Below are positions 52,529-55,461 of a stretch of 64,000 bases of DNA, in pieces. Each line of letters opens with the position of its first letter. Within the stretch, counting starts at the first letter, position 1. Source of the DNA: Candidatus Woesearchaeota archaeon (lineage in GTDB: Archaea > Nanobdellota > Nanobdellia > Pacearchaeales > GW2011-AR1); the NCBI GenBank assembly GCA_964428325.1, contig CAYRXU010000002.1, positions 8,505 through 72,504 on the forward strand, written 5' to 3'. The notes under the pieces were generated by a model. The model did no database searches, had not been told where the DNA came from, and saw only the letters and a program-made list of their open reading frames with translations. Position numbers and translations under genes: made by a program.

Positions 52529-55461
52529 GTTGTTACATACAAGGCAGGTTTACCTGGCCGTGCCTTAGCTGCTTTACCCTCCGGATCATGTTTGCTTGGA
52601 TCATTCACAGCGAATACCTTCACATCAATACTTAAACGCTTTGATAATTCTTCTGCGTTGTACTGCTTAACCTCGGGAGGAATAGTATACATGTACAACT
52701 TTTTTGGATCCTTGCCAGTCTTCTCTTTCACGAGCCGCAAGACAATATGTATATCCCCTAGTACTCGCTCACGCGCCTGTTCAGCCAACTCAAGTTTCGA
52801 ATCAATCTTGCTTTCATCGACATGGGGCCATCGTTCCTGTACAATCAAGCTAGCTCTTCCCAACTTATGCCAATACTCTTCAGCAAGATGCGGCATCACA
52901 GGTGCAATCATCAACAAACACGTCTCAAGTACATGCCGTGGCACCTGTGGTTGTTCAGATAGAAAACCTATAAGTTCCATAAACTTCACAAGCGCACGAT
53001 TAAACTCAAAAGTATCATAGCTTTCTTCAACCAACTTCAAAACCGAATTCAACTTGTGATCCATAAGCGCGCTGCCCACTCCTCCTACTCTATCAAACAA
53101 ACTCTTGAAGCGCGTCACAAATCTATGCACACCTTCCATACCATGATCGTCCCATTCCATGTCCCTGTCAGGACTAGACACGAACAGAAGGAAGAATCTA
53201 GTCGCATCGACACCAAAACGTGCACAAGCATCCTTAGTCGTAACAACGTTACCCTTACTCTTGCTCATCTTCTCTCCGCCTTTCGCCAATACAAGACCTT
53301 GATTGAATAATTTCGTAAACGGTTCGCTAAAAGTTACCCACCCAATATCTCGTAAGAACTTTGTGAAAAATCTTGCATATAACAAATGCAAAACAGCATG
53401 CTCAATACCTCCAATGTAATAATCGACAGGCATCCAATGCTCAACTGCCTTTCTATCAAAGATATCATGCGCATGTGGCGAACAGTATCTCATATAATAC
53501 CAGCTCGAATCAAAGAATGTCGCCATAGTATCCGTCTCGCGTCTTGCTTTTCCGCCGCAACACGGACACTTCGCCTCTACAAATTCTTTATTAGTGAGAA
53601 GAGGATTACCCTTACCCGTAAACTTAACCTTATCAGGCAATTTCACAGGCAAATCTTTCTCTTCTACTGGCACGCTACCACAATCATGGCAATATACAAT
53701 AGGGATCGGCGTTCCCCAATATCTCTGACGTGAAATCAACCAATCTCGTAACTTATACTCCACAGATTTTCCACCAATGCCTTTCTTAGCAAGCGCCTCA
53801 CTAATACGGGCCCGTGCAGTTCCCGAGTCCAATCCATCAAAGATATCTGAATTAATCAATACTCCATCTTCAGTATATGCGCTTTCTCCTTCAGCATATC
53901 CTTTCCAAGCATACCTTGTACTATCAAGGTTAAAGAAATTCTTAGCATCCTTACCATCAATCCAAACCCCTACATGATTCTGAATTTCTTCTGCCTTCGG
54001 CTCAACACGCTTGCCTGATTTCAAAGTCACAATGAAAGTCTTGAAACGAGCATATCGATTAACATTCTTATGTTCAGCAAAGAAATGAGCATGGTTCTCA
54101 AATCCAACTGGCGTAACTGATTTAATATCCTGATATCCAGTCTCCTCCATAACTTCTCGAGCAGCAGCATCAGCAGGTTTTTCTCCGTTCTCAATACCTC
54201 CGATAATCGTGCTCTTCCAGCCAAACTTCTTCCAATCAAGGCAATAATACTTGTCTTCCTTCCAATGCTTCACAATAGCAAATATCGCATCTCGAGTAAC
54301 CGTCTCCTTATCTTTCCGAATAGCATCCTTACCGGTCGTTGTCGCAAAAAGCGGAGCAACCACTTGTTTGATAGGAATCTTATGCTTCTTCGCAAAGGCA
54401 AAATCACGAGTATCATGTGCAGGCACACCCATCACAGCACCAGTACCATAATCAGCAACTACGAAGTTGCCTGCATAAATTGGTACTTCTTCATTTGTCA
54501 ATGGATGAATAGCATACCGTCCTGTAAAGAACCCATGCTTTTCTTTATCCGCCTCAAGTTTTTCAGAAGCAGACATCTCCTTCACAAACTTGAGATAATC
54601 TTTCTCATGCTTTGTACCCTTGACAAGCTCGCTAACAACCTCGTGTTGCACAGCACAGGCAACAAAAGTAACACCATAGAGTGTATCAGCTCTCGTGGTA
54701 AAAACTTCAAGTGTCTTCTCACTACCCTTAATCGGAAACACAACTCTCACTCCCTCACGCCTTCCTATCCAATTGCGTTGCAACTCTTTTACACGCTCAG
54801 GCCAGTTCAACCCATTCAACCCTTCAAGCAATTCATCCGCAAACGCAGTTATACGCAAAAACCATTGCTCCAATTGTTCTATAGTAACCTCGCTACTACA
54901 ACGCCAACACTTTCCATCAATTACCTCTTCGTTAGCCAGCACCGTCTTACATGAAGGACACCAATTCACTGGAGCCTTCTTACGATAGGCGATACCTTTC
55001 TCAAGCATACGCAAGAACAGCCACTGATTCCACTTGTAATATTCAGCATCGCAAGTCGCAATCTCTCTAGACCAATCATAACTCAACCCCAACTCTTTCA
55101 TATACCCTTTAATAGTCTTGATAGCAACATCTGTGTACTTCTTCGGATGTACCTTATTCTTGATAGCTGCATTCTCGGCAGGCAATCCAAATGCGTCAAA
55201 ACCCATCGGATACATCACATTGAATCCGCGCATACGCTTGTACCTTGCAACCGAATCTCCAATCGTATAATTACGCATATGCCCCACGTGTAAAAAGCTA
55301 GCGCTTGGATAAGGAAACATCTCACAAACGTAACATTTCTTCCCGCCAGAACTATCACTGCTCTTATAAGCATCGGCACTCTCCCATGCCTTCTGCCACT
55401 TCTTTTCCATAGCTCCAAAATTCTCCATTTTTACTCCAGAACCCTTCTTAGCCTTCGCCAT
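52525..55461 (-). CDS. leuS: leucyl-tRNA synthetase, bacterial type, carrying an inserted Nudix domain
   Basis: HVGH, KMSKS, CP1 editing motifs TTRADT and [15 protein letters not shown]. The N-terminal region matches bacterial LeuRS. Nudix box at aa 421-443. Confidence 0.9.
   Translation of the reverse strand: [978 protein letters not shown]

Follow-up and report, generated by a model that had tools for sequence, protein, structure and literature searches.

Closest described systems

Bacterial leucyl-tRNA synthetases (LeuRS), as represented by the enzymes of Thermus thermophilus (structure 1h3n) and Escherichia coli (4aq7), have a catalytic core, a ZN-1 domain, a CP1 domain with a threonine-rich and a GTG...D motif, a KMSKS signature and an anticodon-binding domain. 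All of these parts are shared by the LeuRS described here (the query), which is encoded in a 64-kb stretch of DNA from a Candidatus Woesearchaeota archaeon (GenBank assembly GCA_964428325.1, contig CAYRXU010000002.1, positions 8,505 to 72,504), referred to below as the window. The host of the query is an archaeon, however, and the protein differs from 1h3n in being without the leucine-specific domain (T. thermophilus residues ~577-634) and in carrying, where the T. thermophilus enzyme has a loop (residues 363-373), a segment of 157 amino acids (aa) that is certainly a Nudix domain. To judge from its sequence, the insert is apparently a complete and catalytically competent Nudix pyrophosphohydrolase, lodged in a permissive surface loop of CP1. 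We put at roughly 0.55 the probability that it acts on nucleotides as a pyrophosphohydrolase in its own right, kept by selection and tethered to the synthetase.

Fusions that resemble this one in some respects have been catalogued. The NCBIfam entry NF040702 ([quoted passage not shown]) which is among the NCBIfam models listed for the query, likewise joins a class Ia synthetase to an unrelated catalytic domain, but the synthetase and the enzyme are others. The Nudix domain of LeuRS is instead lodged in a loop, differs between proteins in its site and number of copies, and is exchanged by recombination. Fusions of nicotinamide mononucleotide (NMN) adenylyltransferase with Nudix are also known, and combine a nucleotidyltransferase of the HIGH superfamily with a Nudix domain (PMC7824862). 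As analogues of LeuRS-Nudix they pair an adenylyl-transferring Rossmann/HIGH enzyme with a Nudix domain able to hydrolyse the adenylylated product; they are joined end to end, however, and act in NAD metabolism on a known substrate, whereas the Nudix of LeuRS is nested within an aminoacyl-tRNA synthetase (aaRS). The small free-standing Nudix proteins (2azw, 3i7u, Rv2985, NudB, NudI) have the same box and alpha/beta/alpha fold as the insert, with template modelling (TM) scores of 0.68-0.81. Unlike them, the insert is nested in another enzyme, is only 14-22% identical to them and displays motifs of its own clade (R390, L.WK.F.W, A.HK..NR and H...W).

The synthetase and its nested Nudix domain

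The features on which the following account is based, all on the minus strand, are listed here with the evidence for each.

52525..55461, minus strand: complete LeuRS gene of bacterial type with a nested Nudix domain (TIGR00396; 1h3n match; full-length AlphaFold2 model)
53887..54357, minus strand: Nudix insert, aa 369-525, 157 aa (gap in the 1h3n alignment; PF00293; AlphaFold2; Foldseek match to 2azw; alignment with P0001 and P0002)
54133..54201, minus strand: Nudix box, aa 421-443, with R435, E436, E439 and E440 (regular expression Gx5Ex7REUxEExGU; family conservation)
55279..55290, minus strand: HIGH signature HVGH, aa 58-61 (H58, G60 and H61 invariant in 48 relatives)
54682..54699, minus strand: threonine-rich CP1 editing motif TTRADT, aa 255-260 (T255, T256, R257, D259 and T260 invariant in the same 48)
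54412..54447, minus strand: CP1 editing motif, aa 339-350, including the universal Asp350 (G341, M344, V346 and D350 invariant in the 48; aligned to T. thermophilus 335-344)
53257..53271, minus strand: KMSKS signature, aa 731-735 (M732, S733 and K734 invariant in the 48; 1h3n alignment)

An earlier, sequence-only reading of the window had described a bacterial-type LeuRS of 978 aa, which is encoded by the open reading frame (ORF) at 52525-55461. This is upheld by the leuS_bact model TIGR00396 (938 bits against a cutoff of 548) and by the match to T. thermophilus LeuRS 1h3n (E 5.5e-225); the CP1 editing domain is recognized by PF13603 with 209.9 bits. The AlphaFold2 model of the full-length protein has a mean predicted local distance difference test score (pLDDT) of 88.7 and a predicted TM score (pTM) of 0.79, with values of ~91-96 for the residues of the insert. 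The same reading held that the HVGH, KMSKS and CP1 motifs are intact and that the module was added without replacing any part of the enzyme, and the 1h3n alignment and the predicted fold agree, as does the conservation of all four motifs, whose columns vary little or not at all among the 48 relatives; the synthetic and editing motifs are untouched by the insert. As to whether this is the sole copy, the window samples 64 kb of the genome, and within it the gene occupies a position syntenic with that of the orthologue without insert in L002. It would appear to be the housekeeping, bacterial-type LeuRS of a DPANN archaeon. The absence of the leucine-specific domain is seen at window positions ~53257-53290 (aa 722-735), where KMSKS follows FNQGLVLA after no more than a few residues.

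In the alignment with 1h3n, query residues 14-368 correspond to T. thermophilus 5-362 and query residues 526-740 to T. thermophilus 374-593, and this clean break means that ~157 residues replace a CP1 loop of ~11. The expectation that two LeuRS blocks nearly contiguous in bacteria are here held apart by about 160 extra residues was therefore sound, as was the lower bound of the span first proposed for the domain (53887-54309); the true insert reaches 54357, and so begins 16 residues earlier on its N-terminal side. At 157 aa it spans as much as an entire stand-alone Nudix protein, for example P0001. The Pfam NUDIX model PF00293 (cutoff 21.1 bits) detects it with 39.8 bits (E 5.7e-10) in the whole protein and with 42.9 bits (E 5.9e-11) in the insert alone, and the box at aa 421-443 fits Gx5Ex7REUxEExGU at every position, as had been noticed, the single liberty being a Tyr at the last hydrophobic position that is the norm in this family. 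Modelled alone from 43 homologues, the insert reaches a mean pLDDT of 95.9 and a pTM of 0.89 with the strand and helix order of the Nudix fold, and it is predicted to fold on its own. By Foldseek the model belongs with small Nudix enzymes: the best match is an uncharacterised Enterococcus faecalis protein (2azw; TM 0.76/0.81, probability 1.00), and others are the Aquifex diadenosine tetraphosphate (Ap4A) hydrolase 3i7u (TM 0.68/0.79), the Mycobacterium tuberculosis ApnA hydrolase Rv2985, MutT1, NudB, NudI and ADP-ribose pyrophosphatases; Ap4A or ApnA hydrolases among these neighbours include 3i7u, 9cxx and 4mpo. The two predictions together support the alpha/beta/alpha sandwich of the Nudix superfamily. 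The Pfam search, the alignment with T. thermophilus LeuRS and the structure prediction had all been put forward as checks on the sequence-only reading, and each came out in its favor.

That the gene was mis-called, or that the contig is chimeric at the insert, is an explanation in favor of which nothing was found, and we give it practically no credence. GC content is steady across the region (0.40-0.44), the reading frame is unbroken and the junctions are clean, and the same architecture has been assembled independently in dozens of clusters from JGI, ENA, NCBI and Logan; its recurrence in these assemblies and in 61 genomes of the Genome Taxonomy Database (GTDB) refutes a chimera or mis-call. 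An intein or transposable element was also considered, but Pfam finds only NUDIX in the insert and no terminal or boundary repeats were detected, a single 13-nt direct repeat falling inside the insert. A search for copies on viral contigs, which would have pointed to a viral origin, was negative. In contig L001 (JGI Ga0490030_001291) the same gene set is repeated as an exact mirror image, so that two LeuRS copies converge, and the contig looks like a palindromic assembly artefact.

Distribution in DPANN archaea and the Candidate Phyla Radiation

The sequence-only reading knew of no described LeuRS with this design and had called for a survey of LeuRS from DPANN archaea and the Candidate Phyla Radiation (CPR). 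A homology search with the insert alone, which returned only three stand-alone Nudix proteins, had suggested a fusion unique to the query. Full-length and exhaustive profile searches overturned this picture, and the design proves to be common in public data. In 58 of the 120 LeuRS clusters most similar to the query an insert of 157-167 aa occupies exactly the same site, and 55 of these 58 have a strict Nudix box; the source labels of the close clusters are Nanoarchaeota, Woesearchaeota and Pacearchaeota, and the name given to these proteins by NCBI is "class I tRNA ligase family protein". When 1.84 billion representative proteins were searched with a profile of the insert, 157 clusters were matched at E <= 1e-30 and 517 at E <= 1e-10, and local classification of the best 148 clusters identified nearly all multi-domain hosts as LeuRS or LeuRS fragments; some 45 matches are short free-standing proteins. 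Among GTDB species representatives, 63 loci with this Nudix clade were found by scanning with peptide patterns from a tighter alignment (A2), and 61 of the 63 are nested in LeuRS of DPANN archaea and many CPR/Patescibacteria lineages, a count that is biased because the patterns were taken from LeuRS-embedded copies. In a tree of LeuRS bodies the DPANN sequences form one clade apart from the CPR. In DPANN and CPR alike, LeuRS is very nearly the only partner of the clade.

Within LeuRS the domain is not confined to one position. Members of the clade are found at four or more sites, which in body numbering (inserts removed) lie at ~217 (before CP1), ~246 (a CP1 hairpin), ~369 (the site in the query) and ~440-481 (the ZN-2 region), and they occur singly, in tandem or in up to three copies (P0124, P0125). 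Copies within one protein share 20-46% identity, and are therefore old paralogues and not recent duplications. Outside LeuRS, the same clade is found in class II prolyl-tRNA synthetase (ProRS) in only five DPANN clusters (P0230 and P0272-P0275), where it is placed between the anticodon-binding and C-terminal domains (in L034, residues 391-547 of a 678-aa ORF). At least P0001 is a genuine stand-alone Nudix gene, with its own context on L004; the gene contexts of the stand-alone P0002 and P0003 were uninformative. Full-text literature searches found no published account of a LeuRS-Nudix or ProRS-Nudix architecture. The LeuRS-Nudix sequences themselves are already public under automatic Pfam labels, and it is the architecture that, as far as we could find, seems to be undescribed.

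Several further observations were made in the course of this survey. CPR-like LeuRS-Nudix genes are carried by metagenome-assembled genomes labelled Bacilli, Muribaculaceae, Gammaproteobacteria or Bdellovibrionales (L022, L026, L028, L032, L036, L037, L039, L040, L044, L051, L053-55, L064 and L066). On the LeuRS tree these genes are intermingled among themselves and with those of CPR, which makes the taxon labels unreliable, and the labels are probably wrong. The LeuRS-Nudix ORF of L019 (Gracilibacteria) is 79 aa long in genetic code 11 and 1151 aa in code 25, which fits UGA read as Gly in that lineage. Two LeuRS clusters (P0114, P0118) have another insert, of ~110 aa and without a Pfam match, in the same CP1 loop, and one subgroup of LeuRS with 1010-1042 aa (e.g., P0044, P0050, P0058) has ~34 extra residues in the C-terminal region, after query aa 914. 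The window also encodes a stand-alone 156-aa Nudix protein (4319-4786, plus strand; PF00293, 63.9 bits) of a different clade, which the insert profile matches weakly (E 2e-4).

Selection, dispensability and exchange of the module

In 43 diverse sequences of the insert, E68, E71, E72, G53, G54 and G74 (insert numbering) are invariant, and R22, W42, W47, K97, R101, H128 and W132 are invariant or nearly so; the strict Nudix box is present in 135 of 155 copies at the canonical site. Between the query and P0004 the proportion of nonsynonymous differences (pN) is 0.19 in the insert and 0.13 in the body, and that of synonymous differences (pS) in the insert is 0.86; synonymous sites are saturated, for which reason pN and pS are given and not a formal dN/dS. 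The invariant catalytic residues and the low pN imply that the domain is maintained by selection, and purifying selection acts on the catalytic box and on the clade-specific basic and aromatic residues.

The possibility that the insert is a neutral passenger, or a tolerated structural or ligand-binding appendage without catalysis, has to be weighed here. It would accommodate the dispensability of the insert in close relatives and the existence of a sub-lineage ("GQT...A.xEI.EETGY") whose box has lost its Arg and its first Glu. Yet the catalytic Glu residues are invariant in the 43 copies, the box is strict in most copies at the canonical site, purifying selection is evident and old paralogues have been retained, so that we think this explanation improbable. 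The sub-lineage in question (P0124, P0125, P0126, P0127, P0133, P0145, P0069 and others) keeps the metal-binding Glu and often forms the second of a tandem pair.

LeuRS itself can evidently do without the module. P0005 and P0006, two proteins of 830 aa in which a loop of 10 residues stands where the query has its insert, otherwise share ~92% identity with the query and are encoded at the same locus, with the same flanking genes (EndA, S17e, HIT, DUF1428, ZIP); insert-bearing and insert-less forms alternate throughout the LeuRS tree. The existence of such syntenic orthologues means that the module is dispensable for LeuRS function. The columns associated with presence of the insert are at the junction only (Q366 and 526/527), and no catalytic-site or editing-site column of the LeuRS body co-varies with it; co-adaptation of the body to the insert was considered and is rejected on this ground.

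These last results bear on the proposal of the sequence-only reading that the fused Nudix domain hydrolyses non-cognate aminoacyl-adenylates in cis, as a new form of pre-transfer editing. The insert does sit in the editing domain, and its clade is linked to two editing synthetases, LeuRS and ProRS. The proposal nevertheless finds no support in the LeuRS body, with which the insert does not co-vary and in which the CP1 editing motifs are intact, or in the 92%-identical syntenic orthologue that has no insert. The same clade is also found at several LeuRS sites, including some outside CP1 (~217, ~460), in ProRS and as free-standing proteins, and other LeuRS carry Ham1, HAD or Ser_hydrolase modules. 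On chemical grounds the proposal is the weakest of the options: an aminoacyl-adenylate is an acyl-phosphate without a diphosphate, unlike any Nudix substrate known to us, and having no pyrophosphate bond it is not a substrate of Nudix type. A more conventional candidate for this hydrolysis is a conserved gene nearby of the HIT family (PF01230; 58586-58990, minus strand), ~3 kb from LeuRS and kept in position in L002; HIT/Hint enzymes are the known hydrolases of aminoacyl-adenylates made by synthetases; in fold and chemistry they are unrelated to Nudix, and they are not fused to the synthetase. We regard pre-transfer editing by the insert as very unlikely.

Comparison of the query with P0005 and P0006 also shows how the module moves. 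A sliding window shows 90-100% identity along almost the whole protein, but at aa ~351-368 and 526-575, on either side of the insert, identity drops to 0.55-0.75 and the query is nearer to distant insert-bearing LeuRS. The resulting tract can be delimited as follows.

53737..54411, minus strand: recombination tract, ~aa 351-575, consisting of the insert with ~18 upstream and ~50 downstream LeuRS residues (sliding-window identity; informative sites)

Informative sites divide 175:4 outside the tract and 8:13 inside it (Fisher p = 4.7e-12), and DNA identity also falls just after the insert. From this mosaic it follows that the Nudix domain passes from one LeuRS allele to another as a cassette that includes ~60 LeuRS residues on its flanks, and it is in this form that homologous recombination adds or removes the module. 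The similarity between the query and P0004 is about the same in the tract as elsewhere in the protein, which is most simply explained if the insert was lost in the sister lineage when one allele replaced another. Identity in the body and in the insert are essentially uncorrelated (Spearman -0.03), which fits cassette exchange but equally a star-like tree, and we do not use it as evidence.

Patchy distribution, cassette recombination and the presence of several copies and hydrolase types resemble an arms race, and might suggest that these are exchangeable cassettes which protect the enzyme on which they ride by destroying adenylate-mimic or nucleotide toxins directed against LeuRS or ProRS. We doubt this strongly, given that no significant match was obtained with the defence-system models of PADLOC (the best, PDC-S07, has E 0.0018 and 16 bits), that the copies are absent from the viral contigs searched and that no toxin is known in these communities. 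Adenylate mimics active on LeuRS are not known to contain a pyrophosphate bond.

Substrate class and function

Similarity searches with the insert give a consistent but unspecific answer. In a sequence-profile search of the PDB the decapping effector AvrM14 is the best match, and Ap4A hydrolases, including 1f3y, are matched as well (E 1e-7 to 1e-5), together with RppH and Dcp2. Among NCBIfam models, RppH (PRK00714) scores 24.7 bits against a cutoff of 116, and the MutT 8-oxo-dGTPase models TIGR00586 and PRK10776 score 13.6 against 97.9 and 16.9 against 148 bits. Assignment to a specific Nudix subfamily was attempted and abandoned, NCBIfam, the PDB profile search and Foldseek all being generic, so that the substrate class cannot be read from similarity. 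Two aromatic residues (F460 and F461; Y or F in relatives) lie 17-18 residues past the box, a pair that may correspond to the downstream Tyr signature of ApnA hydrolases. Ap4A hydrolases are among the fold neighbours of the insert without being distinctive.

The decapping matches raise the question of whether the domain is an RppH-like enzyme acting on the 5' end (a triphosphate or a nucleotide cap) of synthetase-bound tRNA. Two points favor this: binding of the acceptor end of tRNA by the hosts, and the lack of RNase P in some DPANN archaea. The scores are weak and generic, however, the hosts are LeuRS and rarely ProRS and not aaRSs generally, and free-standing copies exist; a role directed at RNA is unlikely.

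The reading that we favor, an autonomous hydrolase tethered to the synthetase, supposes that the nested Nudix would be a Mg2+-dependent enzyme acting on small nucleotide-type molecules and would not be an integrated step of aminoacylation or editing. Through the tether it would be made in the same amount, and kept in the same place, as a synthetase that is abundant and forms adenylates. The likeliest substrates would be dinucleoside polyphosphates, other adenylylated by-products of aaRSs, or non-canonical nucleoside triphosphates (NTPs), and the activity would amount to "house-cleaning" in organisms that live on scavenged nucleotides. Non-canonical NTPs fit because ITPase and HAD modules co-occur (see below) and because these hosts live by salvage. 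Autonomy is favored by the free-gene length of the insert, by the restriction of its associations to the junction and by the insert-less orthologue (~92% identical) at the same locus. The conserved box and low pN, the mosaic tract and the other hydrolase modules described below also speak for this reading. A link to aaRS chemistry is seen in the 61 of 63 GTDB loci that are LeuRS, in the ProRS copies, in the synthesis of Ap3-5N by aaRSs (PMC7705103) and in the Ap4A and ApnA hydrolases among the structural neighbours.

A number of points weigh against this reading. No NCBIfam equivalog comes near its cutoff for the insert, and the best structural match, 2azw, is uncharacterised, with a likeness to Ap4A hydrolases, NudB, NudI, MutT1 and ADP-ribose pyrophosphatase that is generic at 14-22% identity. 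The occurrence of diverged copies side by side in a single LeuRS points to more than one substrate, and the GTDB count is subject to the bias already described. Above all, if LeuRS were a mere carrier, the clade would be expected in other large proteins as well, yet LeuRS is almost its only host and is used at four or more sites; this argues for a specific link, which the favored reading leaves vague.

Since a pure carrier model does not explain the preference for LeuRS, coupling to adenylate chemistry is the main rival. In that case the Nudix domain would hydrolyse products of the synthetase active site, chiefly Ap4A or other dinucleoside polyphosphates (ApnN) made from Leu-AMP and NTP, with the tether providing kinetic proximity. 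Destruction of Ap4A had been the second suggestion of the sequence-only reading, and it is a plausible one. To our knowledge LeuRS is not a major producer of Ap4A, and this counts against the idea, as do the Ham1, HAD and Ser_hydrolase modules that it leaves unexplained, the lack of co-variation with the body, the scatter of sites over the protein and the frequent loss of the insert. Its merits are that LeuRS, of class I, and ProRS, of class II, both host the clade although their only common ground is adenylate chemistry, and that Ap4A hydrolases are among the nearest folds and sequences; aaRSs in general synthesise Ap3-5N (PMC7705103), and the NMN adenylyltransferase-Nudix fusions supply a known analogue (PMC7824862). 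We look on coupling of this kind as possible, though doubtful.

Other hydrolase modules on synthetases

Nudix is not the only hydrolase that rides on these enzymes. Many LeuRS of DPANN and CPR contain a Ser_hydrolase domain (PF06821/PF00561) of ~175-199 aa, whether or not they also have Nudix; it follows residue 246, at another site in CP1.

After query aa 246: Ser_hydrolase in P0022, P0032, P0040, P0043, P0045, P0074, P0081-83, P0085, P0087, P0096 and P0108

In P0143 the Ser_hydrolase is at a different site (aa 601-766, ZN-2 region). Other LeuRS have a nested Ham1/ITPase (P0139, aa 984-1167, 197 bits) or HAD_2 phosphatase (P0177, aa 654-808), and the CPR LeuRS that bear one of these two (loci L024 and L025) are 1180-1340 aa long. 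The alanyl-tRNA synthetase (AlaRS) of a close relative (L003:6440-8572, minus strand) has 710 aa, as compared with 588 aa in the window, and a segment resembling HAD proteins (PF00702, 27.3 bits; cutoff 26.4) interrupts its catalytic domain. On L004 a free-standing Ser_hydrolase (3296-3904, minus strand), homologous to those embedded in LeuRS (best E 1.7e-22), and the free-standing Nudix P0001 (3992-4465, plus strand) are divergent neighbours; the pair mirrors the modules embedded in LeuRS, and is adjoined by an ABC transporter and a second, different Nudix gene. Synthetases that carry small "house-cleaning" phosphohydrolases and esterases are a recurring theme in these sequences.

A broader and more speculative interpretation is that the synthetases of CPR and DPANN, LeuRS above all but also ProRS and AlaRS, serve as platforms for exchangeable Nudix, Ham1/ITPase, HAD and Ser_hydrolase cassettes that act in cis on ApnN, non-cognate adenylates or adenylate-mimic toxins. 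We look on this too as possible, though doubtful. If true, it would amount to a modular, recombination-shuffled form of synthetase quality control or self-protection without described precedent.

Implications

LeuRS may be scored as missing in genomes of this kind on account of the NCBI label under which these proteins are filed, and where LeuRS alignments serve as phylogenetic markers, the insert should be masked together with the flanks that recombine with it. Nature has supplied two alleles, ~92% identical, of which one has the module and the other does not, and they offer a direct test system for fidelity, Ap4A output and sensitivity to inhibitors. Domains added to aaRSs draw attention because they are usually signs of new functions, and here a whole second enzyme is nested in the editing domain of LeuRS across a large share of two radiations of ultra-small symbionts, in a design that varies in site, copy number and partner hydrolases. 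The mosaic tract shows a route by which such a nested domain can pass between alleles of an essential gene.

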